Numbered from the whole stretch's first letter, positions 11,119-61,644 are shown. The stretch is 61,644 nucleotides of DNA, filler included, from Dimargaris cristalligena (GCA_003614675.1; 11 parts of 11 records of this genome joined end to end with filler, not necessarily neighbours in it), one strand, 5' to 3'. The notes: generated by a model not told the origin, from the letters alone. Translations and numbers: made by a program.

Positions 11119-11282
11119 GTAAGAATTAGACAAGAATGGGGCGTTCCGTTGGCGCTGTGGCCTTGACCCTTTGAGTTGTAACNNNNNNNNNNNNNNNNNN
11201 NNNNNNNNNNNNNNNNNNNNNNNNNNTTAATTAATTAANNNNNNNNNNNNNNNNNNNNNNNNNNNNNNNNNNNNNNNNNNNN

Positions 11283-15602: not shown

Positions 15603-15637
15603 TGGAATCACAATGCCGTGCTTGGGGGTAAAGTAGT

Positions 15638-16816: not shown

Positions 16817-16916
16817 NNNNNNNNNNNNNNNNNNNNNNNNNNNNNNNNNNNNNNNNNNNNTTAATTAATTAANNNNNNNNNNNNNNNNNNNNNNNNNNNN
16901 NNNNNNNNNNNNNNNN

Positions 16917-17029
16917 GGATATCAATGATGCTCGGCCTTATTAGGGCCGGGGGGTACAATATGGCGCTATATGGCCTAATATGACGGTGGTTATATCGGT
17001 TGGATTAGGACGGATTAGGGGGGGTGACA
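16917..17029 (-). mobile_element. LTR (family A) fragment at the contig start
   Basis: Ends GGATTAGGGGGGGTGACA like the copies ending at 20366 and 52603. Confidence 0.75.
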
Positions 17030-20631: not shown

Positions 20632-21201
20632 ATAGGTAATTTCTAATAAGAAGTAGTTTTATGGTGTTATGTGCCAAATAAGAGTCAAAGGGGATAGAGT
20701 ATAATTAGCTTATTGAATAGTAATATTATATAAAGGAACCACACAGAACTATGGGGAGGGGGGTTGTTAGATTTATAAATAACCAATGGGGGCACATCTT
20801 CCTATTCTACTAGTTATTACACTAGTCCTTTTATTAGCCAGGCGAACCATTGCAGTATGATGAGTACTAGATGCCTAGGGATACTGTATATCTGATACAC
20901 CAGCACAACAATAGGATGTGCTAGTTAAATGCTTAGTCTTCTCACAATCGAGGTTTTTAAAATCTAATCTATCAAATGAGGTTGATGGCCTAGCAGCCAT
21001 GTAAATGGCGGGTGGGAGGTCTGCCCATTAAGACTCTAGGTAAATAGCCTCCCCACAATACCCACAAGGCTTAAGTTTTAAAAACTTTAAGGGAGATTTG
21101 AATAGAGCACTTTAATGTCAGTTGTATTTTCAGGGAATCTGTGAATCGGGAACTAGCATTGGCATTGGGTTCTGGGGCTAGCCTTTGATTATACATAATA
21201 T

Positions 21202-21337
21202 GAGAGTAGTTCAATAAGGCTGTATAATGAAATGTCCATTTGATGAGGCAAATACTACTGGTTGAAGCTTAACATCCCACCGATTTTCCCGTACACATAT
21301 CAGCTTAAACCTTGTACAGCCGAGCTGAACTTCACCC
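21202..21337 (+). mobile_element. 136-bp MITE (family M)
   Basis: GAGAGTAGTTCA...TGAACTTCACCC with ATAT TSD; close to the copy at 9084-9219. Confidence 0.85.
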
Positions 21338-23560
21338 ATATTGTCAATGATAATTATCACAAATGCAAACGGATAGAACATGTGAATGTATTTGAAATTT
21401 TGGAAATATAGCATGCCGGAAGAACATTATTGATAGAGGAAGAGACCAAACATGAGCTTGTAGAAGTACGAGGTTTGGAGCTAGTCGACAAGGACTAGAA
21501 TAGCCATACCAGAAAATTGTTTGATAACCCCATGGTCCTACGCCAATTGGCTGTGTACAGAGGTTCTAATAATACAGAGGGACTGCAACCAATCCTACTA
21601 ATGGCTATAATGTAACTAAGGGTGTCCTTTTTGGTGTCTACCGAAGGTGAGTCGGGGTCGACTGCAATTCCATTAGGGGAGAAGTAGAACACCTTACGAC
21701 CTGGGGAATAAAATCGAGATACTGTGGCTAATAAAAAGGCCCTGTAATATATAGATAGGTGTGTATATTGAGAGGAGTTTACATGTCTCGCAGCAAGAAT
21801 ATGGTTTACACTGGAATAGAATTAACTAAATAACCGGTCTGATAGCGGGCAGCAGCTTTAATATAGGCGTAGTTATTAAAAGTGGGGAATTAAGATTATA
21901 TTAAAAGTTGGGAGGAAAGCGAGAGGGAAGCTGACTCTATCTTGTGCCCTAGTGATCAGTGATAGAGGAAAAAAGGTCCCCTGGCCATCCGATAATAGTT
22001 TATAACCATAGTAGGAATTCACCGGAAAGCTATGCTTATGATATCAACAGCCTAATAGCTCTTTTTGCGCCAAGAGTCCCAAGATTTAGTTTCTTGCACT
22101 AGCGGAGGGGCATGTGGGGTCTGTACGCACATGAGTGGTAGGATTGGGGGATACTAAACAATATAACCAAGAAGTGATATGCGAGATATAGTTGTTGTGG
22201 CCGGGCCTGCTTAAACTCTAATAGCATATCCCGGCCAAACTATTTTTAGTTTAGAAAAGATGAAGAACATCGCCAAATATCAGTCTTCATCTTTTCCCAC
22301 CCAGCTATAAGCCATTCGATGGCTAGGCCGTTTTTCCATATTCAATATTCAATATTCAGTATTCATAGTTCTTACTCATAACTCGAGGATCATTTAGTTA
22401 TAGGAGTCTGGGGAATATCCCCAGACTTAGTACNNNNNNNNNNNNNNNNNNNNNNNNNNNNNNNNNNNNNNNNNNNNTTAATTAATTAANNNNNNNNNNN
22501 NNNNNNNNNNNNNNNNNNNNNNNNNNNNNNNNNATGGCCCCCTTATATGGATTTTACCCTATATAGTCGGGTTGAACTTTACCCATATGAACGTATCCCA
22601 AGTGCCCACCTCGCATGGTGTACGTATCCACTATAATTGGTGTAGTGTTTTTGGCTGTGTTACAGCAGGTTGCCATTCCAAAAAAAAAAAAACGAACAGA
22701 CAATAGATAAGGGTGCAATACCCCCTTAGCTAACCATTTTCCCCTTTCTGACATTCCACAGGGCACTGGTCTGGGCCAAAGAATGAAAAGTCAAGTTCCG
22801 CTGTGGCACACCTCACAGTCGGGTTATTCATCCGAGTGTTATATATGAGTCCATAGAATAGTTCCACAGAAGAGCGCGGCGTCCGCCAATCGGATTTATG
22901 ATAGAAGGGAAGGGTAAAATGAGAGGGGTGGTACTAGATATATAGAAGCGCACTAATATGGGGTATTGGCAAGGGGCGGGGAAATAATGATGATATATGT
23001 ATATAATGAACATAAGCTATAGGTTCCCAGGGGGACGACAGTAGAGTACTAATATGGACCCTAATAAATGTCCCAAAATTGGACACTTGCGCCACTCCCA
23101 GATGTAGAGCATTCTGGGGGCTGGCACTAAGCCGTTCATCACTATGGCCCACATTCCTACTAATAAACCCAGACTCCTGGACTTGCTAGTCCGATCCTTA
23201 TAGATACCTGCACAAACACACCACGTTTGCCGATTCCATTATGACAGGGGGTATATTTAGTGCTAGTGCACCTGTCTAATTATTGACCAACCCAGTCAAC
23301 TAGATAATACCTCTCTATCATCATTGGCCTAATTTAACGAAATACGAAGGTTGGGTAGCGCCGCCATTTACGTTATCGAAATGGCCTGATGCACCGAATC
23401 TTCACCACCATAGGACTGGGCACTAGCTATTCAGTTGTGTTCATTATATTAAATTATTTCATAGCGAAAGTCCACGTCTTTACAGAAATCATAGATAGCA
23501 CAAATCTCAACACAATGTCGTTAGGGTATTCAATTGATTAGTATATTACAATAAGTTGAC

Positions 23561-33972: not shown

Positions 33973-36900
33973 GGTGAGGGTGGGAAGCGAGGAGTGGTTG
34001 GGGCAAAGGCTAGTTGCGAGTGTAGTGACTGGAGGGCAAGTGGTGAGGGGGATGATAACTTCGTGTGCGTGAGTGGAACAGAGTGGAGTATGCGGTCGGT
34101 GTTGTTATAGAATGTAGGAATGATATTGATTCATAAGGTGGGCGTGTTTGGCTTTTATATTCCTGAGATAACTGGATAATGGAGAATCGGGACACGTTAC
34201 CTTGTAACTAGGAATTTGGTTCCCAGTCGATGCAGTACACGGACTGTAGGGACTTGGGCATGTCTGCGGTGACCCGGTGTACTCTGGTATTATCAGTGAA
34301 GTTCACAGATATGCACAATCAAGAAATACACAATACCCGGATGGTCTATTATTCCCATTGCCTTTTGATATTGGGTATGGAACAATAGCAGTACCGCCTA
34401 TCCCATTAGTTTCTGGACCGGGAAGTCATAATTGAGGCCTTTTGCTTTAAGCACAATAGTCACCAAATGATTCACACCACCTGTTATCCTGATATTCTAA
34501 GATTCTATATACTACGTCTCCACCGCGGGTACCAGGGATAATGTTGGGGGTGTCACTAGATGACTGGTTCACCACAGCAACGGTTAAATACTTGCGGACA
34601 ACCAGTATGTTAAAAATCCGCTAATTGAATTGTGAATTTAACAATGGGCATATAACGACAATCGAGGGTAATGAGTAACAAGTATTAAATACTCGCTCCA
34701 TCCCGTCATTATAGTCAAACGTTACTCACGCCAATGGTGTGTATTGTCCCAAAGTGGATATCGACTATCCAAAACCGGATCCATCCAATTTGGACACTTG
34801 TCTATTGTGTTCGTTTGTTGTTGCTGGAGGCATACCTGACGGTGGCCCTGGGTTAGCCCTACCTTACTTTTATCCATTGGGATATGTCACGGGTCGAATT
34901 GGCTTAGTAAACCTCCAAATGGTATCTCGTTCGTCCATTCTAAACACATGTACAATACCTGTAAAAAGTGACACGCAGTTATCTGTGGGGGGTATATCCG
35001 TCTACTATGGCTGGATATTGCCCTATATTACCACAATGTGTCAGAAAGTAGACTCGAAAAATGATGGAACTAGCGTCACCAATAGTGAGTTTCAAGTTTC
35101 AGAGTGTGGTCATAGACTGTTTAAGTAATCGTTATAGAGTGACCTTGCCGGTACGACAGGGAACACACCATGAGTTGCGGCGTAGATTATTATGTTGCGA
35201 CTTTTGTTTCAACTAAGGCAGAGCCCGCTCTGATTAGATCACCAGGCTGCATCAGTGGGTTGCACACCCAGCAATAGGCTACACCAATAAGCCAATATGC
35301 TAAGACGGCATATCAAATTACGTTTTGCGCAAATTCATGATCGTGGATAATTGCCATCACTCTCATGCAAGGTCTTTCATCAGCGAGATCTCACGTTAAT
35401 AGGATCTAAAATTTGTTGGAAATGCTAATGGAGTATCAATAAGGCTATATAGAAAGGAGAAAAGCAGATAGAGGTGACATGTGCCTCTGGATGGCTAGTT
35501 TTATTGAATGGTATAGTTGGTGGGGGGCATTTTGAATGGTTGATATCACCCGGGTTAACTACTCTTAGTCCATCAAGAGTCCTGAGGATAGGCTTCTAAT
35601 GGTAGGCAGGGCTTAGACTTGGCTAATTGGGCTACTAGTGCTAGGACAGGGGTGTAGTACTAACCAATAAAGGATAATGCAGGTATATGCAAGGGACGTG
35701 CAGCAGGCACACTTACTAGTTGGTACAAGGGGGGTAAGTGTATATAGAGTTTATTGAGGTAACTAAGGGGTAGAGATAAGCTAAGGAATTGAACCAGTCC
35801 TGGTAGGGCCTGGTTATATGTATGCAGGGACAGCTCCAGAGGGAGGTCCTAAGGGAAATACTACTAAGACTAAGGTATGGAAGTAAAGAATCTGACTAGA
35901 TGACTTCACATTGGGAAGACTCTCATGGGAACTTGAAGAGTCTGGGATCAGTAAGTTGAGTGTTTGGAGTGCAAAGCATTGGGGTTAAATGAGCAGGGTT
36001 ACATAATAAAGGATGACCCCATAGTACCAGGGGTGACTATGGGAGGGTCAATATGGCACTATAAGGCAAGAATAGGATGGGTGATTATTAGGTCTGGATC
36101 AAGTTAGATTAGAAGGGCCAATATCACCCTCTCCTACTGGAGCCTCTTCCTTGAGGCCTTCAATAAATGTAATAATCTGGTCACCGGAGACTCATTCCTG
36201 TGGGTGGTATTTGTCATGGACCACTGGGGTAATGGTATAGGTGTTACCACTATGGGTAGCTTTAATAGAGACAGGTCCCTTGAAGGGGGCCTGTAAGGTT
36301 AATATGCCATGTGGGACTCAGATGAGGACATGGTCACCAATATGATATTGTGTGGGGTTAGTTGGCTTGGGTCCCGGTTTGTGATAGACATATTGGTAGG
36401 CTTCATGGAGCTGATTACATAGCTTGTCAACATAGGCAGAACCAGTGGAGGCTCGTAAGGCCTTGGGTTTGGTGTTCAGTGTAATGTCGACTGGCATGTG
36501 GGAGTCACATCCATACATCAGAAAGAAGGGCTTATTGGCAATTATGCGGACATGAGCCATGTGGTAGGTAAATAAGTGGAGGGTAAGGTGTTGGTCCCAT
36601 TGGGGGTCATCACCAGAGGAATATTTGGTGATCATGTGCTTGAGGGTCCCATTGAGATGCTCTACCACCCCATTATTCTGGGGGTGGTAGTGAACAGCCA
36701 TCTGGTGGTCCACCCCTAAGAGTTGTAGGGTCTGCCAGAGAAGGCTAGCAGTAAATTGTTTGCCACAGTCAGAGATGAGGATCCAGGGGCATCTATGCAT
36801 GCTGATAATGTCTTTGATGAGGAACTAAATGATGGCTTGGGTAGTAATGTGGGGCATGGCATGCACAAAGTGCCAGCAGGTGAAGTAGTCAACAGCAACA

Positions 36901-39095: not shown

Positions 39096-39356
39096 ACCAA
39101 CTTTATAAAGTTTTTAACTAAAGTAATCCAATATGAAAAATACTTGTTTGGAAGCTCAAAAGGTCAGTCCTTGGCAACCATAACTTGAAGTATAAAATCC
39201 CAATAACTAGTGTAGTAATAAAGATAGGTATTATTATAAAAGAAAAGATACCCAAANNNNNNNNNNNNNNNNNNNNNNNNNNNNNNNNNNNNNNNNNNNN
39301 TTAATTAATTAANNNNNNNNNNNNNNNNNNNNNNNNNNNNNNNNNNNNNNNNNNNN

Positions 39357-41430
39357 TAATCAGATAGCCGTTATAGACAAATAGATCGGGGCGTTCGTAG
39401 GACGAGTGGTCAATGTTGATGTTGAAATAGCCCATTTTGCCAGCATTGGCCTTGAGCGAGGTTGTGGACAGCCAGACATCGGGTGTTTTCTTATTGGTGA
39501 TGGGTGGAATGGCCAAGGTCTGGGTATTATCGAATCCAGACACACTCTGGGCGTTAGTCGACTGTAGTTTGTAGGTCCAGGCGCTATCACCCGTGTTATT
39601 ATAGCTGAAAAACATGTCAAAGTCACGCCAATCGGAATCGGGGAAGGTGCCGTTAATACTAGTGACATTGAAGATGATCTGGGAGGTGGTAGCACCAAAG
39701 CCGTTGATAATACCGGCCCCTTGCTGAATTACTGGGAAGTAAGTTAGGCTGGCGGCATCAATTTGAGGGCGGGCAGTATTAACAATGGCGGCCAGAGTTC
39801 CATTGCCGGCGTTGCTTTTACCGTATTCAATGGCCAGCGCAGACACACCAGCGACATAGGGGGTGGACATTGAGGTTCCGGATACGATACCATACGATCC
39901 AAACTGAACGGGAAAGGGGGCGTAGATGTTAGAGCCAGGCCCGAGGAGCTCAGGCTTGACATCAGACTCGGGACCAGGACCCCACGATGAAAAGGCAGAA
40001 GGCGCACGCGGAGTAAACGAATCGAAAATCACACTATCTGCTCCTGCCGAGACCGTGACAATGACGGCAACGTTTATCTTATTGATCAAGTAGACCGCAT
40101 CGGCTCTGTAGATGGCCACTGCGGGGAGGTACAATGGGCGGTCGTATGCAACAGTGGAGGGGTCACTGCTGTCGCTCTGGTAGACAACCATCAAAATACC
40201 ACCGGCATTTTGGACATTCAGGCCCTTGGTATACATAGTACAGCCACCGTTTTGCACAAGAACCACTTTGCCGGTAACGGTAGGTAATGCGTTGCACCCA
40301 TAATCGTCGGTGGTGCTTCCGGCAGCCAATCCGCGGACAATTTGAACTTGGTTTAGATTGAGAGCGGGTAGGTAGTTCTGAGACATGGTACGGCGAATTC
40401 CCACTAGCTCGTCGGATGTCACGTTGAAATACTGGCTGTAGTGGAAGGCCATTTCAGCAGAGCCCACTGAAACAACCGAATTACGAACCGATGGTCCGTC
40501 AATCGACCACATTCCGTCTTTGCCACGGTTACCGGCGGCCGATACCACGAAGACGCCTAACTGAGCCAGCGTTGCTGAGGCATCACCTGAAGCAGAGGCC
40601 CCCCAGGCACCGGGGAATCCGATAGACATGGTGACAATATTCATGCCGTCCAAATAAGCTTGTTCCAGTGCCTTGACCACGATACTCTCAGTGACAATAT
40701 TGTAGCAACCCATTACACGGTACACGCCGATGGTAGCATCGGGGGCCACGCCCTTGAAGTCACCATCGTTACCTGCAAGAATTCCGGTCACATGAGTCCC
40801 GTGGTACTGGCAGGGATCAAAAGGGTCACTATCGGGAACCGCATTTTTACCCGAAAAAAAGTCGCCCACGAAATCATACCCGTACTGGAGACGGCAACCG
40901 GAGGTTTTGAAGCAGCTGCCAAACGCGGGGTGGTTATAGTCGATACCCGAATCGAGCACCCCAATCTTGACGTTGCGACCGGTGACGTTCAACACGTTCT
41001 GGACATTGTTGACTCCGGTGTAGTTGTGGGCCAGCATGGGTTTGGGCGACTGAGTAGGGAAATACGGGGATGATGTAGCTGAAATAGTCGTCGCATCCAG
41101 ACTACTAATACCCAAGGGCCACACGATTTGGACACCTGGTAAGGAGGCCATGGCATCGTTATATTGATCGTCGACTTCGAGACTCACCCCGTTCAGCAAT
41201 ACCGAATAATTAGCCGTAATGGTATAGGGAATACCCAGAGCAGCCATCTGGGCAAAGAACGAAACGGACCCTGACGGATCGCCGGGATCCCCGTTGAACT
41301 TGACAATGTAGTTGTGGGGGATGGTGTTGAAGGCAACGCTACTTGGACCTCCGATCAATTGGCCCGTGGTCGAGGGCAAATCGCCCAGGAGGGCCGTGGC
41401 TAGAACCGCCCATAACGAATAGGTACGCAT
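39357..41430 (-). CDS. Secreted subtilisin-like serine protease (S8, with I9-like prodomain and PA domain); 3' truncated
   Basis: Signal peptide; triad VLDSGIDY, HGTHVTGI, SGTSMSTPYVAG; AAGN oxyanion motif; PA insert GKVVLVQNGGCTMYTK; QQGAG. Confidence 0.94.
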
Positions 41431-44265
41431 GGTCAATGACCGAGCCCGACGGGTTGGAGCGACTGAATACTAAATAAAGCAGGTGTCCCACGTAAAGGAT
41501 ACGTATATAGAGAAAACTGAGTAATGGCAGATCGACTACTTCTAAAAAACGAACCAATTAGTTATGTTGTTCACCAAGACTATTATTACGGGTACTAAGT
41601 TAGATTTCGAAAGCTGTAAGGCGAGCCGACTCTTTATATACGAGACTTTGGTAGTCCTCCGAGAATTTTCAGCCGAGCGGCTTCAAATACAATTCCATAT
41701 AATTTACTGTACATACTTCATATTATTCTTATACACTAACTTTACTATTTAACCAAGTAGTTTAAAATGCGTTTATCCGGATGTCTTATAATTAACTAAT
41801 GGCGGTATGTGGATTTGGAAACTACCCACCTTTACAGTGCCATTTCTCTTGACCATATCATACCCATGCATCCCTTGCCTCACACTAATTAGGAATTACA
41901 GGGCAATCACTTGGCCATCCATTCCTGTCTCTCGCCAAAAGTACAGGCTTGCTTGCCATGCTATGGACCATTCGTAGTGGTTAAACGTGGTTTCTATACA
42001 CAACCATGCGCTCATTATACTCCCAGGTCGTGAGAAATATACGAATTCCAGAATTCGATTTTCACATAATGACCACGCTTTAATGGTGCTCCTCAAGTAG
42101 GTCACTGAGTAGAAGTAGTGGTAGACTTAATGCCCTTTAGGTCTACCTCTATATATAGAAATTTAAGTTTATTCAAATAGCAATAGCAGGTTCTCACACG
42201 TGAAGGGTCACCCTCAAAAATTGCAGGGATTCTTCCTCCTCCACATAGGACAGAAATGACTTCTATGCCTGTTAATGATGCAGAGAGAAATAGCTCATCA
42301 CCGAGGTAAACCCCCTCCCAATCCACAGATGAGAGAAATAGTTCGAAAGCTCCCTCTTTCGGATCAAAATTCATCTTGGCAGTATACCATATGCGCTTGC
42401 CATTCATTTTCAAGTCAGACCTTACAACTGACTCCCTTGTCCACACTATGTAACTTCTATATCTTGGTTGATATATACCGAGTAGAGATAGCACGTGTTA
42501 GGTGAACTGCTTTCCAAATTAATTCATTACTATTCCATATTCGGCTGCGTCAGTTGACCAAATCAGCTTAACACCCCTGGTGTATGTTTATTTTTGCAAA
42601 TCCAGTGACTGACCTGTAATTCCACTCTAAACAATTAGCCGGAAATCATCCTCAAAATCCCCTATTGACCCTATGATGAGATCATCCGCATTGGTAGAAT
42701 TACAGCATCACATTAGTATGGGCGACATGTAAAGTATATGGAAATGATTAACAACTATTGGAAGTAAACAGTATCTCCTGGATTTACAAGGACCACCGGA
42801 GCCAACCATGGGCCAGCTCTTCTGAAACAATGGAATCTGGCTCTGGAATAGCGTAGAATGCCTTATATTCCAGCATTTATAGCATGAGAAAAATCTTAAC
42901 CACCCGAGTAGCCATAGTCGCTGTATACAATAAGAGGATCGTCGCGTCCTTGATATAGCTTCGTGTCTTAATAAATCATTATCACTATATGTGTTGTGCT
43001 TTACAGTACTAATACAGCCTGGTTTCGCTCCCTCCCCCCATAGTATATATTACAATGCATATGGTATATATATGGGAAGTGAAAAAAAAAGGAATAAATA
43101 ACGAATGCGAATTACAAGAAGCAGCGAGGGCCAATCAGTCACCCCCGAGTGAGGGACGACATCATGTGCAGCCACGCAGTCGTGGCTGTTGACCAGCCCA
43201 ATACCATATTAGAGACCAGACAGGAAGGCTACGAAACCATATAGTGATAAGAGTTCCCAGGGATGACTTATCAACAGTGAAGTGCAATGGGGATTTCAAT
43301 ACATGGGCATGATAAAATGATGAATAGATAAGGGTTGACTGGTGTACGCGATATAGAAACCGGCCATGGATCATTAGATTTTAACTTGACAGTGTATATA
43401 TATAGTGGGCCACCACCAGAAGACTATATAGGTTAACAAATTGATGTTTCTAAAAAGTATTTACTAATATCTGGGGGGCACTGATAGGAACTAATATAGT
43501 CCTGGAATTAACGTGGAAAGTGGAGTGAGGAGGTCCGTTGTATGCTAGCTAGCTTGGGTGGTTGATTGGTTCAGCTCCGGGTGTTGTCAAAATAGAATGT
43601 ACTCATGTGGCCGATCATACGTGCATAGATTTGGACGTATGAGCGCGGGATATCCTGTACAGCAAAATCAAAGCTCTTTATATAAGTCCGGTGAATTATA
43701 AATAGCATCTTCATGTATTAAATATACTGGGCCATATCCTAGAAGGAATCTGCTAAGGTATTCGGCACTAACCCGGTCGGCATTATATCGACTACCATCC
43801 AAAAGTTGATTGGTATGCTTGTTTCTAGCAAAGTCTACTTGATGACGAATTAACAGTATTAATTGGACATACCATTACATTTATTAACTATATAATTTTC
43901 TTCGCCAATGTATTTTACCAAGTTATACTACTTGCGACTATGTATATGTCTACTTAAAAATATTAGCCACATTGCTGCATCTAGGTTTGTAAAATAAAAA
44001 TGCTGTAACCTTGAAGAGGGAAGAACGGAGCGGACTATTCAAAGAATAATCAATTTTATAAAATGCTGAGCTCTACTAAGCATTGAAAACATTCCGATGC
44101 CATTCATTTTCCCGTTCCTATATCCATGCCTAACATTATACATGAGTTACAGTGCCGACAAATACAGTCACTCCACTACCTTGCAAATCCCTTAACTGAA
44201 GGTTTAGGGATCTGCCACGCTGATGCTAAGACGTCCTGGGAAGGGTGCCAAGCTTATATCCCGAG

Positions 44266-45024: not shown

Positions 45025-45365
45025 CACCACACCTTAGTCTTAGTAGTATTCCCTCTTAGAACCTCTCTGTGGAGCTATCTCCATATATATATAATAGGGC
45101 CCTATTAGGACTAGTTAGATTCCTTAGCTTATTCTTACCTCTAGTTTACTCATTAAACCCTATATATACTCATTCCCCTCATATTAAATAGTAAGTGTAC
45201 TTCCTATACATCCCTTACATATACACTACTATTAGCCTTTATTAATTAGTAATATACCTCTGTACCTGATGCTAATAGCCACTGAGCCTAGCCTAAGCCC
45301 CACCTACTATTAGAAGCCCATCCTTAGGACTCTTGATAAACTAAGAATAGTTAACCCAGGCAATA
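45025..45365 (+). mobile_element. Partial LTR (family A)
   Basis: Reverse-complement match to the first part of 52021-52603 (ttccttagcttattctta..., ctaagaatagttaaccc). Confidence 0.8.
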
Positions 45366-46945
45366 TAACCCACAACTAAGTTACAACACCAAACTACTAA
45401 TTCTGCCAGTGGACAGAATAGTATAGTGACTAGCTATAGGTTAATTTAAATGTCAGCAGCTATTTTTATAAAAATATAATAGCCATTGCAAAATTCCCCA
45501 TACCTTCAGAAAGTATCAATATTAGCTAATGTTGTATAAAACTGCATATTATGGTAACTATATACTGTATATTTTTAATTGTGTAGTGGGATTTGGTATA
45601 TAAGAATTAGTTACTTTGTACCCATTGTTCAAGGTGCCCTCCTTGTGAGAACTAATGGTGTTCTATTCATTACTATTGAATTCTTCTGATTATGTTCACT
45701 ACTCCTATGCTATACCCCAGTGATGCTTCTTCTAATATGGCCAATGGTACTACCTCCATTAACCAAAATACCCCCCCCCCCTTCAACAGCAGGTCATCTT
45801 GAAAATGAACTGTTTCCCCCCAGTTACATCTCTAATCCTAGCACTGTAAGACCAGAAACCAATGGTAATACATTGTTCCTATTGTCAAGTAACAGGCGGG
45901 ATATTTCATTCTCCTCAGTGTTGTATTCTTAGAAGGTCCACTTTTGTGGATTCAGCTATGCCATTAGGATGGCTAACTACTGTAATAGCCAGGGAGGGGT
46001 AAACATTATGGTGTGCTGTTCCATTAATGGTCCTGTAAACTTAAAAATGCGGAGTCGAATTGGAGAAGGCCTAGTATAGGGTCAACTGTGGATGAGGTGT
46101 GGGCCTCACGGTGCTGCTTTCCACGTAGGGTGGGCTATATCGAGGTCCACTCGGGAGTTAGATGAGGTCAAAATCATTCCCTCTATTTTTGTTCGGGTTT
46201 CGTTAACCTATTATACACATTGTGTGTTTATAGCACGAAGAGCGAAACAGCTGGAGTTGTATTGGCTGAGTGGTGGATAGTAGAAAAGTGTACACCGGAA
46301 ACGCTTACTAATTTCCCCTCCCATTAGCTTATTATTCCCAGACCAAGAATTCCCGAACAGCCCCTAAGCCTCTTTTGAGAAAAGAGTTCGTAGGGGGAAA
46401 ATTCAATACAACAGTATAAAAATTATAGCGAAAAGCAGATAGGGGAATGGATGGGAGAATCATATTGAGCCTGTAAAGCCCCCATTTTATCCTATGGATC
46501 TTTTGCTGTAAACCTCCCTTGAACTTTTCTTATATGGAGGATGTTGCACAGTGGTTTTCCAACTACCATGTTACAGGGCCCCTCGTATAAAATGTAACCT
46601 CGAAGACAATGGTGGCGTTCGACTCTGGCTTCGAGGTTACATTTAATGTCACTTTAGCTTTTCATCCATGGCCACTCGCCTGCCATCTCTACCCCTCTGT
46701 AAATTATGGGACAAATCGGCTTAACTCTGGTCTGGAATACCTACAAATGTGCCAATGCGTCGCCTCAGCTAATATTAAAGGCATTTATATATAAGGATAC
46801 TCCACGCCCACCATATCCCACATCACCCATCCTAATATACTGGTACTCTTTCCTCAATCTTAACTGCCCTTGTTCAATACAGTGGGTTTTTCTTAGTCGG
46901 CCAATATTTCCTTCTGTCTACATTATATATCCTTACCCATCTAGT

Positions 46946-48524
46946 ATGCAACTGCCTCCCGTAGTGTGGTTGTTAATGGGTGTTGCCCCAACCCGTCTCT
47001 GTGCTACATCCGATTTTAACCTGCCTCCCCTGAATAATTTACCTGCAGAAATCGAGAGTTTGATCCTCAACGGGTGCGATGCGACAAGCGAGTATAGACT
47101 CAGCGGAACTTGTCAAATGAGACAAAGTAAATATCTATCATCGAGAGTCGAGAAAATGTGGACGGTAAGAGATGGGTTGTATTTTTAAAGTGTATTATCA
47201 ATTATAGCACGTCTTGTTATTTTCCATGCACTTCTTCGGCCATAATAATAACCCATCTTAGTTTGGCCAGCACTCTAAAATGATGATATGGACTGTCAAA
47301 CCTACCACTCCACCCATTAGCTCTTTTACAGTTCAATGTTTCTTGTGGGGATGTTTTCGGCCCTAATTGAGTCTAAGGGGTGCCACTAGCCGTCTCATTC
47401 AAAATAACAATACCATTTTTCTTAAATTATAATATTCGCCAACTTTACCACCGCTGCAACTATTTATTCATTTCCGTTGAAATTATACACAATACTACCA
47501 TTAGGAGATAACCCGATTATTAAGCCAGCCAATTTCTACAAATTGGTGGGTCCGCATTCCCCAAGAAGAATTCAGCACCCTATATTCTCTGCTGGAATCT
47601 GACATTCGCGTCAATTTCTATCAGCGCCGCATCTGGGATGGCCTAAAGACATCGGGTCATTCCCCCGACGGTAGTTGGCAAGGCAATGCGAAATTGGCCA
47701 TTCGATACCCCCACAGCCATGCTTTGGTAAAGGAACTGGCCCCGAGGTTAGCCCAAATAGCCGCCCGGGGAGGTCTACCCAATGCCCCGCTCCATGAAAT
47801 CCGGCCGGGCAAGCTGTTCACGACGACTCCGCTGTATTGGGCCATCCAAGAGGGAAAAACAGCCATAGTGGATAGTATCATGGACCGGATCATGATAGGC
47901 CGCCAATCCCAATCATTGGGCGCGGCCATTGCCAGCCACTTAGACGGCGAAATGGTGTATTTGGCGGGTGTCTTAGCCCTCCCCCAAACCGTTCAACAGC
48001 AAGTTCGCCAGGAGGTGAATTACGGCGGTGATTACAGGGATGTCACTGACCCCCAGCTTATCCCCGATTATTGGCAGAAAACTATTCTAAAGAACTGGGG
48101 CGATTCCTTCCTATTCGACTTGTTGTGTTCGATGGCCGTACAGTACATTGTTCAAGGGAATTCTGAGGGTTTGGGTAAACTCAAGGCATGGGCGGCCCAA
48201 ATGTCAAATGAAATGAAAACCTGGTTAAAGCAGTTGGTTTTGGCGGTGGCGGCCGAAACGGGCCATCTGGTCCTGTTGGATGACCCCCGGGTGATGCCCT
48301 TGTTCGAAAACTTCCAGCCGGCACTTCCCCATTTTATGCTGGGCTGTATGGAGGCCAATGGCTGGATGAAGGCAGTCAAACATTTTAAACAAGAGTGGAA
48401 TGTCAGCAAAACGACTCGTTTTGAAACTACTTACAAATGTCAGGACCAGATGCCCAACACGGCACCCCTCAGCTTGAATTCCCAGGGTGTCTTAACATTA
48501 ACCTACTTTCCTAAGGCTGCTTAG
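46946..48524 (+). CDS. Putative secreted protein (412 aa) with an F-box-like motif and an ankyrin-like repeat; exons 46946-47164 and 47505-48524
   Basis: TATA at about 46785. Hydrophobic N-terminus MQLPPVVWLLMGVAPTRLCA, then LNNLPAEIESLIL...RLSGTCQ. A phase-0 GTAAGA...CATTAG intron joins it to an open frame containing TPLYWAIQEGKTAIVDSIM. Confidence 0.72.
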
Positions 48525-50259: not shown

Positions 50260-50689
50260 AATGCATCTGTGTTGTGGTAGGACCTGAGACTACTTAGTCA
50301 ATCGTAGTATTCCTTTTTTCAATCACATTCTATTTTTATATCCTTTTATCAACGAAGTCATGATTTATTATTTTATAGCCTTACAATATCATAGCAAGCG
50401 AGAGATATCATCATCAGCCAGATATATTCGTAAACTCCTCATTATTTATCAATTCAAGNNNNNNNNNNNNNNNNNNNNNNNNNNNNNNNNNNNNNNNNNN
50501 NNTTAATTAATTAANNNNNNNNNNNNNNNNNNNNNNNNNNNNNNNNNNNNNNNNNNNNTTTATTATAAAAAGTATTATATTTTTAAAGAATTTCATAGAG
50601 TGACTAACCAGTTCACCTGGAGAAGCCACCCTGCCCTTTTTGATATACTTTGTTATTCATTTTAGTGGCTTGATACCACCACAGTGACA

Positions 50690-51002
50690 CCGGTCCCCAT
50701 GGGGGGCCTGGTTATATATACGTGGGGGACTACTCCAAGGGAGGTCCCGAGGGGAAACTACATAACTAAGATAATGATAGGGGGGGGTGGGTGGTCCTCG
50801 TACAAGCGGAGGCTTCCATGGGAACTGGAAGACAGTAAGATCACCTAGGAGTGAGTAGTGTGAACTCTGGGGGGGTCTGGCCAGTGAGATGATATATATG
50901 ATGTCCAGCCCCATTAGGACTGGGGGTACAATATGGTGCTATATGGTCTGCTATGATGGTAATCATTAGCAGATGGATTAGGTCAGATTAGGAGGGGCAA
51001 CA
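50690..51002 (-). mobile_element. Partial LTR (family A)
   Basis: ggggcctggttatatatacgtgggggactactcc...gattaggaggggcaaca matches LTR-A. Confidence 0.8.
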
Positions 51003-51149
51003 TTCTAAAGTAGCCACCTATAATAGCTGGTACCTACTGTACACTGGAAAATTGATATTTTTATAACTAGACCTCCATCCCAGTAGTCACCAGGTTAGAC
51101 CTAATTATGCCTTACCACACCTACCAATATACCTCAGTTAAATGAACAT

Positions 51150-51285
51150 AGGAGAGGTTCATTTAGGCTGTATAACAAAAAATCCATTAGATGAGGCCAA
51201 TATTACTGGTTAAAAGATATCCTCACATATATTCGTCCATACACATATTATGTAAAACCTTATACAGCTGGTTTGAATTTCACCC
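51150..51285 (+). mobile_element. 136-bp MITE (family M)
   Basis: TIRs as in the other copies; ACAT duplicated on both sides. Confidence 0.85.
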
Positions 51286-52020
51286 ACATTGTTTTCAGGC
51301 AAATTATCTGACTATACTCCAAGGACTGGCTCTTAGAGTTCTTTATGTCAGTTCCGCCAACATCTGCATTTATTGGGACAGTGAATCTTATTAATAATTC
51401 ACCTCTCCCTTCCTGCTGATTCTTTTGTTAGAAAACCATCTCATCCCAAGTGTGGAATACTCTTCCTGATGCAGCACATGCTCACTAGCCTCCTATTGGT
51501 CAGATTTTTTCTAATAAAAACTACTGCGGAGAGTTTAATCATCTCCTTGCGGTTCTTTACTATTCTTATCTATTTTTGATATAAGCTTTATTATCAATCT
51601 TGGATTGTCATCTATGAGAGAACTTGAGGTTATTCCAACATCTTTATCTTTAGTTACGCCATCCCATACTTGGGGCATTATTTCTACCTTGATTATATCT
51701 TTCATCTACCTCAGTAGACCCAGCCACAGGAGTCTGGGAATGCTAATTATGGTTCTTTCTCTCTTCCAATATTCTATTAAGTTGCATTAGAAAGTGCTTG
51801 TGTTTACCCTTTGATTTGTCATTCCAATAGTTCCTACATTTTATACCTATCCCATCATAGTTCCTGGTTAATTGGTATCCCTGGTCTGGTAGGGTTCTAG
51901 GCTCTGAATTCCTGTATGGCACATAAGTAGATATACATTGTACTCAGCTCATCTAGTTTAGTAATCCACAATTTGGGTATAACCTCCCAGTTGATGTATA
52001 ATAATTTAAAATAATAATCA

Positions 52021-52603
52021 TGTTGCCCAAGTTAACTACTCTTAGTCCATCAAGAGTCCCGAGGATAGGCTTCTAACAGTAGGTGGGGCTTAGGCTTAGC
52101 CAAACAGGCTACTAGTATTAGGGTGGGTGTAGTACTAACCAATAAAGGATAGGTGCAGACAAATGCAAGGGACATGCAGCAGGCACACTTACTAGTTAGT
52201 ACATGGGGGGGTGAGTATATATAGAGTTTATTAAGGTAAACTAGGGGATATGAATAAGCTAAGGAATTGAATCAGTCCCAGTGGGGCCTGGTTATATATA
52301 TATGGGGACAGCTCCAGAGAGAGGTACGAAGAGAAATACTACTATGACTATGGTGTGGATAAGTAAAGAATCTGACTGGATGGCTTCACATCAGGAAGAC
52401 TCTTATGGGAACTGGAAGAGTCTTGAATCAGTGAGCTGAGTATTTTGAGTATAAAGCATTGGGGTCAAATGAGTGGGGTTACATAATAAGGGATGACCCC
52501 ATAGTACCGGGGGTGACTATGGGAAGGTTAATATGGCACTATAAGGCCTAATAAGGACAGACAATTGTTAAGTCCAGATTAAGTCAGATTAGGAGGGCTG
52601 ACA
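52021..52603 (-). mobile_element. Solo LTR (family A), 583 bp
   Basis: TG...CA termini and perfect 5-bp TSD AATCA. Confidence 0.92.
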
Positions 52604-54937: not shown

Positions 54938-55489
54938 TGTCACCCAGGTTAACCACTCTTAGTCCATCAAGAGTCCTGAGGATAGGCTTCTAATGGTAAG
55001 TGGGGCTTAGGCTCAGCCAAGTGGGCTACTAGCATTAGGGAGGGATCAGTACTAACCAATAAAGGATGAGTGCAGGCTAATGCAAGGGACGTGCAGCAGG
55101 CATACTTACTGGCTAATACAATGGGTGAGTATATAATGAGTTTATTGGGGTAAACTATGGGGGTAAGAAATAAGCTAAGGAACTGAACCAGTCCCAGAGG
55201 GGCCTGGTTATATATATATGGGGACTGCTCATAATGAGGGGTCCTTAAGAGCAATGGGATGACTAAAGAAGAGGCAAGGGTTGGGGCCTTGGCCGGGGGG
55301 GCTTGCATCCAGAAGACTCCACTAAGATAGGGAGGAATATTGGATCAGCTGGTGGAGTATTGTGTGAGAAGCATTGGGGCCCAGTTATAGTGGGTTATAT
55401 AGCAAGGGAAGAGTAATATGGTGCAGTAAGGCAAGATTGGACAGTATGATTAGTATTCTTGTATTTAGGGAGGATTAGGCAAGCTGATA
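54938..55489 (-). mobile_element. Solo LTR (family A), 552 bp
   Basis: TGTCACCC...CTGATA termini and perfect 5-bp TSD GCATT. Confidence 0.9.
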
Positions 55490-55736
55490 GCATTGTATTT
55501 AATTATATAGGGTATAGATGTTTAGATATTATGGTATAGACCCTCTTTTTTTTCTTCTTTAATAGCAGTATTTACCCCCATTTCTTATTCTCGCTGTGTA
55601 GGAATTTGGCATCCCCTTCCCTTGGGATCCTTCTAACTGAGTTGGTAGACCAGGGCTTTAAAGTGGATAATATACCCCCACCCTTTTTGGTGTGGCCTAA
55701 ATTTGATGAGGTTGGCAGCCTACTCATAAAAGATAT

Positions 55737-55848
55737 GGCAGAAATTCATCCAGGCTATATAATAAATAATCCATTTGATGAGGTAAATATTACTGGTCAA
55801 AAGTTATTCTCCCACATATTATCCCATATGTATATTGTGTAAAATCTT
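55737..55848 (+). mobile_element. MITE (family M) truncated by an LTR insertion
   Basis: ATAT-GGCAGAAATTCA...; the M sequence breaks off at TGTCACCCC (55849). Confidence 0.75.
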
Positions 55849-56052
55849 TGTCACCCCTCTAAATCTAACATAATCTGTCTGCTAAATGATTTCCGTCATA
55901 GCAGACCGTATAGTGCCATATTGTACTCCCAGTCCTAATGGGGCCGGACATCATATATATCATCTTACTGGCCGGACCCCCCCCGGAGTTCGCACTACTC
56001 ACTCCTAGGTGATCTTAGTGTCTTCCAGTTCCCATGGAAGCCTCCAGTTGGG
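55849..56052 (+). mobile_element. LTR (family A) 5' part, running off the contig
   Basis: TGTCACCCCTCTAAATCT... is the reverse complement of the LTR-A end; close to 50800-51002. Confidence 0.82.
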
Positions 56053-56696: not shown

Positions 56697-59600
56697 TTAA
56701 GATATCATGCTCGCCAAAAGAAAACTTTGTGACGAAGATTCTGGTTGATTAAAGTCGAACAGCGAATCTACGCTAAGTTCTGGGGGTGACAGGGATGCCA
56801 GTCGGTGCTTTTGGATAATCTTTTTTATCTCCTTTTTACGGGCCGCGAACGGAAGTCCAAAGCTAGGCATTCGAGCCTGGTAGATCTGTTGCTGGGCATG
56901 GATGGCCGTGGCTCGAACGAGCTGGCCCAGTGACTGGTATCTCGCCAGCATCCCGTCCATGAGGGGGCCGAAGTTGGGAACCTGGTCAGTAATGGCAATC
57001 GGGATTTGAGAAATAGCTGTTAGTAATTGGTGTGCAGTGGCCATGTCACTAAGTAAACACACCATATTAAAAAGGTGACGGCGAGATGAACCACAAAATA
57101 CCCTTTCCAAAGCGGCACATAACCAAACCAATTTACCTTCTTGTCTTTATAGATCCGTATGCCGCACAGTCTTTCGTTGAGGGGGTTAATGACAATCTGG
57201 ACGTTGCCGAAGTCGCCCGATATGGTACCGGGTATAAAGTCCATATTATTTTCATTCCATACAATGTGGATATGGTCGTTTCCAACGTGTCGTTTCTATT
57301 ACATGATGGGCAATTCAGTATCCGATTTTGGCAAAGTGTCCGGAAAGGTTAGGTTAGACAGGTCGAAGCCGAAGGCAGCGCCCAGTAAAGTACCCCCCCC
57401 CCCCCACTTCAGTCAGGGCATGAATATATGAAAAGTTACTTTGCAACCCGGGGAGTAACACTTACCTTGCGAATCAATTGATTGTCGTTGGGGTCACTGG
57501 GAATACGAGTGGCGTCGTGGAAGATCATTTCTATCAGGGAGTTGCAGAAGTAAATGGCAGTATCCCCGTCATTACCATTGCGCTGAAGGCGGCCCGTGTA
57601 TCCAGTGTGGGTGCGTAGGTTAACCTCCCAGCCTAAGGTCTTGAGGAATGTATTGTAGGCAGGGCTACCACCATGGTTGCCGAGAATAGAGGTTTCGTCA
57701 ATCTGCTGTGATCCAACGTAGAGAACCGCGGCTTTGAAACACTCCCGTCTATATGGGAAATCCAATAATCCCGAGGCACATTCAGAAAATAAAGATTAGT
57801 AACCATATATGTAATTATTTCCAATGCAATGTCTAGAAAAGTGACATCAAGCGATGGTGTGGATTAAGGCTCGGGTGAAAATGATCATCTAAATAAATCT
57901 AAAACAGGCCAAAGAGGGCCACAGGAAACACACTATAATATACAGCTAATATATGATTATAAGGGGCAAGAGGTTGACTTACGGGTTAATGGTATCCAAG
58001 TGACGCAGGTCTCGGTACAGCTGCTTCGATTTCTTCATAATCGTCCACCCCTTATTAGGTCCGGTTGTTATTCCACCGCTGCGTGCGGATTGGTCAAATG
58101 GGCCACCGCCATTATTAGTTTGCGCTGCACCCGTATTAGGTTTCGAAGGCGCGTCCTCTTCGGGTGGTACGATGCGCTTATGTTGGTCCTCGTCAAGGGC
58201 AAAGAAGCTTTCCCTATTCGGCGGGCGCGGACAAACCGGGCGTGATTGGTCCCGGCTATTCTGACTCATGAGCTTGGATTCAAGCCGACTAAATTCCTGC
58301 ATATCCTTTTCTAAAGTGTCTCGCTCGCTGACGGATGGCGCAGGCGTGTTGATATCGGGCATCACGGGCCACGCAAACCCCGAGTTTTTACCCAGACTTA
58401 TGGGTCGGGGGGCTGTTCGACGGAAATCCAGTGAGACGGTGGACGGTCGCCTAGTGCAACACTGGGGATTTTGGCCTATGGTCGATGCCCGGCGGAGCGC
58501 CTTAACGTGACGCTCGGCTAGGTAGATGCGCTGTAGAAACTGGTATTTACCCGTGGAGTTGCGCACCAGTAGAAGCGGGTTGGATTCGTAAAGTTGGGTT
58601 CTGGAAAAGGTAACGACACTTTTGCTGTTAAGAGAGAGGAACGATAGCTCCTGGTCCTCGTCGCTATCGCCAGTCACTAGCGGCTCGGTGATTTCACTAA
58701 TAAAATACAAAAATACAGCCCATAATGAAATTCCAATGAATGGGTAACACACATTGTTCTCAAGTTGGATGTGGATAAGGAGTATGCCTAGCCCGTGGTG
58801 TTATAGAGGGCGGCTGCTATACAATATATAGTTAGATTCGAAAGGGTAGTAGGCTCGCAATTCTCTATTTACCTATAAATATAGTCAACCCCGCGAATTG
58901 GCGGGAAGTGATCGTAGTGATTAAGAAGATGATCAATGACCCCTTCGACGGTGTCCTACATATCCAGCGGGCAATATGGACGTAGGCGTTTGCACCATGC
59001 GGGAATCAAGACGAGTGTGGCAGATTGGAGGCGAGATAAAAGGTTAGTGGTCCGAAATATAGCATGTCTCTCTCCATGGTACCCATCGTAAATTCCACTC
59101 AAAACTGGTTTGTAGACCCCGCATCAAGAACGTTGCATTCAGCGGAGGGGGTAGGGGCGGCCTAGCCGGGGAACTGGGGTTTGGGACTTACCTGAATCGA
59201 GTCGCTCCATTTAGTGACCTGGCTCTGATCCGCGATAGCTTCGGGTGTTGCCCGGGTTGAAGCCGACTGGGCGAATTTTTCGATCGTTTTCAAAGTAGAC
59301 TTCTCGTTCTTCGTAATACTTTCATCAAACCTAATTTCGCTCACTAGGTGCTGGATCATGTGGTAGCTCTTGTGGGTCATGCGGACCATCGGCAAGCGCA
59401 CCGCGTTCAACTCCTTGTCCACCAGAAAAGCGCGCTCGAGCGTATCGAACACCATGGTTTTGGTGGCCACCTGGTACAAGGTATCCGCGGGAAACCGCAT
59501 CAGCGACTCCAACAAAGTCACCATTAGCCCGCATACCGAAACATGCCGGCCGGAGGTGGGTCGAATGACGAACCGATCGAGCTGGAGGTGAATGGCCCAT

Positions 59601-61644
59601 AGCAACAGGACGATATAGTCCCCCCGCATGGCCGGGTTGAGGTGCTGGATGGCCCCCGGGGTATTGATGATGACGAGGAGGGATTGGCGGGCCAATAGAG
59701 ATAACTCGTCATGGTCATCGCCCAAGTTAATAAGCAAGCGTATCAAGACGGCCCGGAGAATATCCTTTTTAACCTCGATATCGCCGGCCTGCATAACCGT
59801 AACCGTCATGAAACTGGACCCGTGGGTTAGTTCGCGGCCCACCGCCAGGATTTCTGAATCGGGAATATCCCCTCCTGGTATAACGGTCAAAACCGGGTGT
59901 AAGAGAATTTCCAGGATTTCTAGACGTAGGGTCATGCCATCCATCAGGTCCATGGGGGTGTCGTGAATACCCCCGAAGGTCAAATTGCCCTCCGGGCTCA
60001 GTTTAAGGGCCGGGCACTTGCGGTCCTGGTGAGCCTGAAGATGGACCAGCATACTAAATAGGATGCGGAAGGCCACCGTTCGTGAGACCAGGTTTAGACC
60101 TGAGTGGCGTTTCAGCATGGCTCGGATGCTGTAAAGGAAGGGGGTCACCAGCAGATCTACGTTGGGAAGTCCAGTGGAAAAAATGGGGTAGAGGTAAGAA
60201 TAGACGACATTGGCCATGGTCGGGTTGCGGGTGGCCAGAATATGAATGATCAAGTAATAGAAATGGGCGACGTAGTCTTCCGGAATCAATACCGGCTGGA
60301 CCCGGCACATGAGTCGACACAGGGCGGCCAAAGCCCACGGGTAGGCGTCACAGCTGGCTAGGGTAGATGTCGAATTAAGATGGCCACCCCTTCCGCCTAT
60401 CCCGTCCCGGCTGTAGTCCTGAGTGGCCCCTCGATGGATCGACGGTGGATCAGCAGCGGAAGGGATGGGACCTCGACCAAACTCATCGTTAATGCCAGCG
60501 GGGCCAGCGAGATAGTCCGACCCATTAATAAACTCCATGACCGGGGCCTGGGCGGGTGGGTGCTCACAGTTGACCCCCGGCGCAAAGTCCAGTTGGGGGG
60601 ACTCCCATTTGAAGCACACTTCCATCAACGACGGCGCCAGGGCCCAGGGCGAATAGAGAAGTAGAATCTGCCTCAGCCGGGTGAAGTTAGACCCTGCCGG
60701 GGTTTCCAACAAATACTGAATGGGAGGATAGCTGTGGACGACCGCGCGGGGTAAGGCCTCCAGACTGATACCCCGGCTATACAGGAGGCCGCTCACTGAG
60801 GAGAAGGTTTCGCAAACCCGGATAATCCCACGCACCATCTGCACCAGGAGGTGGGCATAGCGGATTTCGTTGGGATGGCCGATGGCGGTTAATAGTTGGG
60901 ACCACATGTAAGTGGCTTCACTTTCGTACCAGTTTATGCCCTCGATCAACTTTTCTAGATAAACCAGCGAACTGACCCCCGTTTCCAACCAGGGACAGGG
61001 TTTATCTAGGGTGCCCAGGACACACTTGCCCTGAACCAACCGGTTGGTGTATTTGGGGTGGGCGAATAGCTGGACGTCTTGGAGGAGATGCTCGCAGTAA
61101 CTATGCTCATTCCAGTCTTCCAGTGGGCCCTCTCCCCCGGCAATGCTACTAGCAGCGGTACTTCCGCCATTACCGCTGCCTCCTTCGCGCTCCTGTCCCG
61201 TTAAGAGAGTAGCGGCCAAGCTCGGGTCCAGGGTTCGAATGCCGTGGTGCTGGTTGGACTGGAACTGGTGGTGGGACAGTTCGCGACTCGCCGAGGCCCA
61301 GTAGGAGTGCACCGATGAACTCGACGACGAAGCCATGGTGTCCCCATCCGTTGGAATCCGTCCCAATCGGCCATCTATATCCTTATTAGTGCCGGGAAAG
61401 CTGGGGTTAAATAATTCTTCGTCGTTCACCAGGGTATTGGAAATCTGTAGCTGGCGCCGGAAGTATTTGGGGACGAGCCGCCGCTTATCCCGGTTGATGG
61501 CCGCCTTGAGATACGCTCCCCCGCGGGAGCGTAGTTTAGAGGGGACCTTGGGTGCGGATCGCTCTTGCTCGATTTCGTCCACTGGTACGACCGGGGGTTG
61601 AGGTACCGGTGGGGTCACGGCGGAATCCACCGCCAGGGGTGTTC
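56697..61644 (-). CDS. Ral GTPase-activating protein alpha subunit-like (C-terminal Rap-GAP domain), multi-exon, 5' truncated
   Basis: RECFKAAVLYVGSQQIDETSILGNHGGSPAYNTFLKTLGWEVNL...EMIFHDATRIP | KRHVGNDHIHIVWNE...GDFGNVQIVINPL | VPNFGPLMDGM...LVRATAIHA; upstream VRNSTGKY and an 822-codon exon. Confidence 0.85.

Follow-up and report, generated by a model that had tools for sequence, protein, structure and literature searches.

The closest known architecture to the one that we propose here, in which a secretory leader is followed by an F-box and a target-binding domain, is by analogy that of the SSGP-71 family of the Hessian fly Mayetiola destructor. In a review, SSGP-71 proteins are described as secreted F-box-LRR effectors that interact with host Skp proteins (PMC4617103). 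The likeness to the candidate effectors of the fungus Dimargaris cristalligena would extend to several properties. Each system belongs to a eukaryotic parasite and combines secretion, predicted in our case, with an N-terminal F-box (F-box-like in Dimargaris) placed ahead of a helical or solenoid, putatively target-binding region, and each forms a lineage-specific paralogous family in which some members possess a degenerate or missing F-box (PMC4617103). In contrast, the C-terminus of SSGP-71 is made of LRRs, typically 13, in a variable family (PMC4617103), whereas the Dimargaris family comprises four genes with an orphan, predicted all-alpha domain and no detectable repeat. In addition, host Skp binding is reported for SSGP-71 but Skp1 binding would be, for Dimargaris, a proposal by analogy, and the host of the Hessian fly is a plant whereas that of Dimargaris would be a fungus.

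In AnkB of Legionella pneumophila, a short helical region similarly comes after an N-terminal F-box, and the AnkB literature puts forward the same idea of host SCF receptor mimicry (PMC2790608, PMC2916131). Unlike the Dimargaris proteins, AnkB is bacterial, is delivered by the Dot/Icm type IV system, possesses no Sec-type leader and carries real ankyrin repeats. Likewise, the RipG/GALA proteins of Ralstonia fuse an N-terminal F-box to a target-binding domain, and both host SKP1-like interaction and F-box-dependent virulence are reported for them (PMC4617103). They differ, however, by their bacterial origin, their type III (injected) delivery and their LRR domain. Finally, ordinary fungal F-box receptors (PF00646, PF12937, PF13013 and PF15966) share with our candidates the N-terminal position of the motif, its LPxEI start, its hydrophobic pattern and the presence of a C-terminal protein-binding domain, but they lack a secretory leader, usually score above Pfam thresholds and bear known domains such as WD40 or LRR.

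A survey of Ascomycota states that a role of F-box proteins in the pathogenicity of eukaryotes lacks support (PMC8146833). We found no fungal precedent for leader-bearing F-box effectors in the part of the literature that was covered. The same literature yielded no published work on the leader-bearing family of D. cristalligena. The words "F-box" and "ubiquitin" are absent from the main text of the Dimargaris genome paper, as are "effector" and "secreted". In a mycoparasite effector comparison of 2026, "F-box" and "ubiquitin" are likewise absent, together with "Dimargaris", and a comparison of Kickxellomycotina describes neither this family nor fungal leader-bearing F-box effectors. Effectors of fungus-parasitising fungi are indeed almost unstudied in early-diverging lineages.

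The window that we analyzed is a stretch of 61,644 nt of D. cristalligena DNA (GCA_003614675.1), and all the features of the gene discussed below are located on its plus strand. The initial annotation had proposed that two ORF fragments are joined by a phase-0 intron into a protein of 412 aa, and both the coordinates and the arithmetic proved correct. Exon 1 (P0001, 46946..47164) starts with an ATG at 46946, is 219 nt long and encodes 73 aa, which contain the leader and the F-box-like module. This exon was defined by its translation, by its match to a paralogue and by a tblastn search of the paralogue P0004 against the window. It ends at the splice donor ACG/GTAAGA, and the intron (47165..47504, 340 nt, GTAAGA...TACTACCATTAG) ends at the acceptor CATTAG/G, with 47504 as its last base. 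Exon 2 (P0002, 47505..48524) was defined by translation, homology and an AF2 model; it encodes 339 aa and a stop codon that ends at 48524, which brings the full product to 73 + 339 = 412 aa. The GC content of the intron is 36.5%, compared with 47% (0.47) and 51% (0.513) for the two exons, and stop codons interrupt each of its frames (4-9 per frame).

The comparison with P0004 provides the main evidence for joining the two exons. Over residues 1-71 of P0004, exon 1 has 37 of 71 residues identical (52%, E 2e-22), and exon 2 matches residues 75-352 with 58% identity (E 1e-117). Three residues on each side bridge the exon junction and correspond one to one with zero gap. Judged by alignment, the pairing of the exons is beyond chance, and the two exons are predicted to encode a single P0004-like protein with the right phase and spacing. 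No second copy of the gene was found within the window, where the next-best tblastn match had an E-value of 0.32. This locus is very probably a genuine two-exon gene of 412 aa that belongs to a species-restricted family of four genes with the same succession of leader, F-box-like module and orphan alpha domain.

We searched for the other members of the family with an exhaustive HMMER profile search of 1,835,955,588 protein representatives (E<=0.001). Only three other family proteins were identified: P0004 (5e-228), P0005 (1.6e-5) and P0006 (2e-4). All three are D. cristalligena proteins, with lengths of 355, 421 and 312 aa, and the public accessions of the family beside the 412-aa product are RKP35166.1, RKP38508.1 and RKP38509.1. 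The relationship to P0005 is distant, with 24% identity to exon 2 over 316 aa in the pairwise alignment (E 3e-25). Word-indexed protein searches returned the window's own cluster and P0004 only, P0004 itself was the sole protein retrieved when its residues 24-72 served as the query, and a metagenome scan produced 338 pattern matches among which no relative was confirmed. On these similarity searches, the family comprises four genes and is known from a single species, D. cristalligena. P0005 has a near-identical twin with a different locus-tag prefix, and the locus tag of P0006 directly follows that of this twin. This suggests that P0006 and the twin of P0005 form a tandem pair.

The alignments also revealed a segment of 56 aa in exon 2 (residues 59-114 of P0002, 47679..47846) that is absent from the P0004 model, present in P0005/P0007 and found in part in P0006. 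We considered that this segment might be an unspliced intron and rejected this possibility: the segment is coding in the window because no GT..AG signals are found at its borders there and because it is conserved in P0005/P0007. In P0004, the segment was either lost or removed by mis-splicing during annotation.

The first 20 residues of the protein (MQLPPVVWLLMGVAPTRLCA, 46946..47005) resemble a signal peptide based on hydropathy, on the (-3,-1) rule and on the aligned leaders of all four family N-termini. The hydropathy and (-3,-1) analysis was conducted with a script for P0001 and P0004 and by eye for P0005 and P0006, and it should be read as a heuristic only. The window leader reaches a Kyte-Doolittle maximum of 2.5 (averaged over 9 residues) and presents candidate cleavage positions after residues 20-22, where the residues at -3 and -1 are small. 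By this heuristic, the tripartite n-h-c organization with small residues at -3 and -1 was found by script in P0001 and P0004 and by eye in P0005 and P0006. Indeed, each of the four known N-termini of the family consists of a Met, a hydrophobic run of 10-16 residues and a small-residue site (VMA/T, VIA/A, CHG/A or LCA/T). To the eye, the leaders of P0005 and P0006 are of textbook type, with Met, a hydrophobic core of 12-16 residues and then VMA/T or VIA/A; that of P0004 starts with MK, followed by a core of 11 residues and CHG/A. Among the four, the window leader is the weakest case: it possesses no basic n-region, has an Arg at -4, an h-region of 9-10 residues and LCA/TS as its candidate site. 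The leader residues are divergent among the members of the family and their hydrophobicity is retained. Functional signal peptides are known to evolve in this way, with residues that diverge and a hydrophobic character that stays. The short hydrophobic leader noted in the initial annotation is present in the sequence as claimed and has aligned counterparts in the four members, and it is in our judgement a real signal peptide with good probability.

The F-box-like motif follows at residues 30-63 (NLPAEIESLILNGCDATSEYRLSGTCQMRQSKYL, 47033..47134), starting 8-10 residues past the putative cleavage site, and the three-helix module that we propose covers approximately residues 28-68 of the 412-aa product. 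The string LNNLPAEIESLIL, which had been read as an F-box, occurs in the sequence as quoted. An F-box opens its first helix with Leu-Pro-x-Glu-Ile/Leu, which is followed by a hydrophobic pattern. This opening and pattern are found in the window (LPAEIESLIL) and in P0004 (LPVEIDDMVL...VCQKW). The opening is degenerate in the other two members, since the Leu-Pro is altered to KP in P0006 (KPTEVIHQIL) and lost in P0005, which has QS (QSTEVMFEIF). Two further positions depart from the usual pattern: the "..KxW" position is occupied by Arg in the window protein, compared with the usual Trp in P0004, and helix 1 ends in an invariant Cys where a hydrophobic residue is usual. The F-box-like region of the P0005/P0006 branch is only 15-19% identical to that of the window.

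Profile searches of Pfam pointed to the F-box clan with scores below the cut-offs. For whole sequences, P0001 (exon 1) matched F-box-like_2 with an E-value of 0.17 (12.3 bits, cut-off 21.6), and P0004 matched F-box-like (E 0.024) and F-box (E 0.041) with 14.8 and 14.3 bits against cut-offs of 24.3 and 20.5. Neither P0005 nor P0006 presented an F-box match as a whole protein at E<=10. We then used the four N-terminal fragments without their leaders, for which just four Pfam families were matched at E<=10, all of them F-box families: F-box in two of the four members (best E-value 0.0023), F-box-like in one (0.0016), F-box_4 in one (0.036) and F-box-like_2 in one (0.091). The window fragment matches F-box-like_2 alone (0.091), so that the distant P0005/P0006 branch must account for one or both of the two F-box matches. 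None of the F-box matches reached the gathering score of Pfam, since the whole proteins obtained 12-15 bits compared with 20.5-24.3. Two further Pfam matches, MACPF_1 in P0004 (E 0.054) and SnoaL_4 in P0005 (E 0.13), were rejected as chance.

Other sources of evidence were also considered. In a language-model Atlas, the ten named clusters nearest to residues 22-73 of exon 1 were all F-box clusters (top score 0.90), a result that we treat as a lead only, as the score is uncalibrated for protein parts. UniRef names both P0004 and P0006 "F-box domain-containing protein". A profile of the N-terminal region of the family compared with 177,635 PDB sequences retrieved no F-box protein; its two matches (E 1.7) were rejected as chance. 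The AF2 model of P0004 places helices at residues 34-43 and 47-78 with a pLDDT of 24-30 there, and it is uninformative for the N-terminal third of the protein (pLDDT <35). The module is about as well conserved relative to P0004 as the remainder of the protein (52% for exon 1 and 58% for exon 2). Taken by their sequences, these N-termini probably descend from an F-box, and it is likely that the module belongs to the F-box clan, with no curated Pfam threshold reached. The leader and F-box architecture of the initial annotation is strengthened insofar as it recurs in the four Dimargaris family members and the weak signals all belong to the F-box clan, but it is qualified by the fact that every Pfam match is below its cut-off.

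The ankyrin repeat that had been suggested for the C-terminal part of the protein is not supported. The string TPLYWAIQEGKTAIVDSIM on which this suggestion was based (residues 108-126 of P0002, 47826..47882) occurs in the sequence as quoted and overlaps the 56-aa segment that the P0004 model lacks. In the AF2 model it falls in a helix-turn-helix (helices 109-115 and 119-131), and the alignment indicates that only PL..A is common to the paralogues. None of the Ank models of Pfam (PF00023, PF12796, PF13606 and PF13637) matched any of the five family proteins searched (P0002, P0004, P0005, P0006 and P0008) at E<=10. Tandem units of about 33 residues were not detected either: the self-comparison of the profile with hhalign gave a single off-diagonal match (E 0.73, probability of ~0.1% or less). 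The resemblance to ankyrin is therefore limited to the string. This weakens the analogy with Legionella AnkB that had been drawn for this locus, because its ankyrin half is unsupported here. DARPins did appear in the PDB profile search at E-values of 0.69-1.1, which we regard as a weak lead, and Ank-bearing clusters appeared in the Atlas at 0.93-0.94 with a recognition of 1639, a value below most known families and with a family inconsistency flagged. These DARPin matches (E ~1), which were obtained with the profile of the whole family, and a match of this profile to the prion protein (E 0.22) were rejected as chance.

The AF2 model of exon 2 contains 17 helices and two short strands, which corresponds to an all-alpha arrangement with a short C-terminal hairpin (pLDDT 52.7, pTM 0.56); the full-length model of P0004 was unusable (pLDDT 40.7). 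The hairpin is conserved in the family and contains a Cys, and about three cysteines are conserved in total. Foldseek returned no match for the exon-2 model in the PDB at E<=0.001 (best E 0.67). A wide VIA-align search of 48,161 chains gave a best Z of 5.3, with six chains at Z>=5 and none at Z>=8, and these chains were all generic helical repeats, a class of result that is rated uninformative for helical proteins. We conclude that the C-terminal ~340 aa are an orphan domain whose predicted fold is all-alpha.

The cytosol and the nucleus are the normal locations of F-box proteins. Co-translational entry into the ER would keep a protein from meeting the cytosolic Skp1 of the cell that produces it, which leaves three options: the module acts in another cell, the module is a relic with another structural role or the leader is not a signal peptide. 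D. cristalligena lives on other fungi as a haustorial biotroph, and the Dimargaritales parasitise fungi by means of an appressorium and a haustorium (PMC9866270). Since D. cristalligena is a mycoparasite, the host would be another fungus. We propose that the cleavable-looking leader of ~20 aa would route the 412-aa protein into the secretory pathway of the mycoparasite, and that the mature protein, with the F-box-like module almost at its start, would enter the cytoplasm of the host fungus. The module would then dock on host Skp1, and the alpha domain would bring proteins of the host to its own SCF ubiquitin ligase. This chain from secretion to host entry and host SCF mimicry is the most likely specific mechanism, and we offer it as tentative, with secretion, entry and Skp1 binding all predicted from the features of the protein. 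We know of no mechanism of protein entry into host fungi for the Dimargaris group. That the family stands for a fungus-on-fungus F-box effector, in which a haustorial mycoparasite exports F-box proteins via its ordinary secretory pathway and plugs them into the SCF of a host fungus, appears rather unlikely at present. If true, it would constitute an independent eukaryotic reinvention of the strategy of Legionella, Ralstonia and the Hessian fly, with a substrate-binding alpha domain without known relatives. The orphan alpha domain would then represent a new substrate-recognition module, and a secreted F-box family would offer a testable handle on the host manipulation of a biotrophic mycoparasite, because the Skp1 of the host and that of the parasite are both easy to clone.

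Alternatively, the protein may be secreted or reside in the endomembrane system while the F-box-like stretch serves as a structural cap or persists as a relic that does not bind Skp1. The protein would then act through its orphan alpha domain at the interface between parasite and host, in the wall or, by a different route, in the host. We consider this alternative possible though somewhat doubtful. It would agree with the leader of all four paralogues and, within the module, with F-box similarity below every curated threshold, with the LP that is not conserved in the P0005/P0006 branch, with the invariant Cys where helix 1 usually ends in a hydrophobic residue and with the lack of an F-box match in the PDB profile search. 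However, the weak signals all converge on the F-box clan and on no other, and the conservation of the module is close to that of the remaining protein (52% compared with 58% to P0004), two observations that argue against a relic. The family is also unlike typical apoplastic proteins, with approximately three conserved cysteines, no repeats and no known extracellular domains, and no alternative function can be named for it.

Another alternative, which we judge distinctly improbable, is that the protein is an ordinary endogenous substrate receptor of the fungus's own SCF. The hydrophobic run could then serve as a short tether on the cytosolic side of a membrane, or it could belong to a longer N-terminus missed by gene prediction. 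This reading would agree with the usual cytosolic or nuclear location of F-box proteins, and every N-terminus of the family is a prediction. The start codon deserves caution in this regard: the frame upstream of 46946 is open for 81 codons, to 46703, and an in-frame ATG is located at 46706. No ATG was found between 46755 and 46946, and the string TATATATAA lies at 46786-46794. The upstream open frame is AT-rich and without homology, which argues against an extended protein, and the four paralogous loci share an aligned start Met, which for one locus is seen in two public records with different tags. Moreover, the leaders of P0005 and P0006 appear by eye to be of n-h-c type, with a site that resembles AxA, and their length is insufficient to span a membrane. 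Orphan, lineage-specific F-box families do exist in early-diverging fungi and would favor an endogenous receptor; for example, 31 orphan F-box genes are described in Choanephora (PMC5238444).

Public annotation presents this locus differently. Exon 2 is identical at 315 of 315 residues to the D. cristalligena protein RKP33699.1 (P0008), which is 324 aa long and begins with MLQGPSYKI. Based on the sequence of P0008, on the translation of 46568-46594 and on the AG at 47574-47575, the first exon of the public model (MLQGPSYK+I, 46568..46593) is followed by a GT and spliced to 47576, past this AG, through an intron of ~980 nt that bypasses exon 1. The public protein thereby lacks both the leader and the F-box-like motif, and it omits 24 residues of exon 2 that P0004 conserves. 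The two-exon model of 412 aa is better than the public model. A decaying or mis-modelled locus, in which exon 1 would not be expressed with exon 2 (as in RKP33699.1) or the gene would be silent, is highly improbable: the public link from 46568-46593 to 47576 without exon 1 and the 340-nt intron, which seems long for a fungal gene, can be cited in its favor, but the public model drops the 24 residues conserved in P0004 and requires the ~980-nt intron, exon 1 is unbroken and shares 52% identity with the N-terminus of a paralogue in the right phase and spacing, and the exons are free of stops with a composition clearly unlike that of the intron. Whatever the function of the protein, secretome and domain surveys that are based on the public proteome will miss the leader and the F-box-like motif of this locus because the public model omits the exon that encodes them.

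Finally, we examined the genomic setting of the gene, which the initial annotation had described as a transposon-rich accessory contig. Ten of the 22 ORFs of the window matched a Pfam family, and nearly all of these families are of core type: class-I tRNA synthetase, RNase PH, GPN-type ATP_bind_1, inositol polyphosphate kinase, APH-type kinase, a Zn2Cys6 factor, a subtilase with a PA domain, Rap-GAP on two ORFs and Exo_endo_phos at the left edge. No transposase, integrase or reverse-transcriptase family was found above its cut-off among the 22 ORFs; the ORF at the left edge presented an "endonuclease-reverse transcriptase" match below the cut-off (23.9 compared with 27.4 bits). With housekeeping families in the window and no transposon family above its cut-off, this description did not hold. 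No ORF recognizable by Pfam is found between 43.1 and 56.7 kb, a stretch of ~13.6 kb around the gene. The gene lies in a pocket of core DNA that is poor in genes and dotted with repeats, and short dispersed repeats do flank the gene, with copies of 100-600 nt on both sides of it (45053-45366, 50580-52598 and 54938-56050).

The public model of the two-exon gene, RKP33699.1 (324 aa), begins with a 9-codon exon at window positions 46568-46593, passes through an intron of about 980 nt and resumes at 47576. Since it leaves out both the conserved exon at 46946-47164 and, in exon 2, 24 conserved residues, RKP33699.1 looks like a mis-annotation of the locus.

A 56-aa segment (window 47679-47846) is conserved in the other family members and is absent from the model of P0004 (RKP35166.1), the closest paralogue of the gene product. 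This gap may correspond to an intron wrongly called in the public model or to a real deletion. Another family member, P0006 (RKP38509.1), ends early at 312 aa and lacks the conserved C-terminal hairpin, and may therefore be truncated or mis-modelled. The consecutive locus tags of P0006 and P0007 (RKP38508.1), both on one 38-kb contig, suggest that the two arose by tandem duplication.

Approximately 5.5 kb upstream of the gene in window coordinates, a subtilase with Peptidase_S8 and PA domains is encoded on the minus strand (39304-41469); relatively high numbers of subtilases have been reported in Dimargaritales (PMC9866270). A series of adjacent minus-strand ORFs occupies positions 56697-61642 and continues past the right-hand end of the window. 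Rap_GAP was hit by two of these ORFs (56700-57146 and 57439-57795, both on the minus strand), and no Pfam match was found for the 273-aa and 826-aa ORFs located beyond these two. All of these ORFs may be exons of a single large multi-exon Rap/Ran-GAP gene.

The ORF for an inositol polyphosphate kinase, on the minus strand at 13092-15650, is bracketed by a 1280-nt inverted repeat whose arms (11182-12461 and 15638-16917) are 100% complementary. This repeat stems either from an artefact of the assembly or from an inverted duplication that took place very recently. Finally, two families of short non-coding repeats are dispersed across the intergenic DNA of the window in both orientations, with 64-88% identity. 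The first was found at 19805-20089, 35546-36118, 45053-45366, 52021-52598 and 54938-55223, and the second at 9067-9223, 11334-11481, 16611-16767, 21185-21341, 51133-51289 and 55720-55876. Both families may be MITE-like or solo-LTR-like elements.
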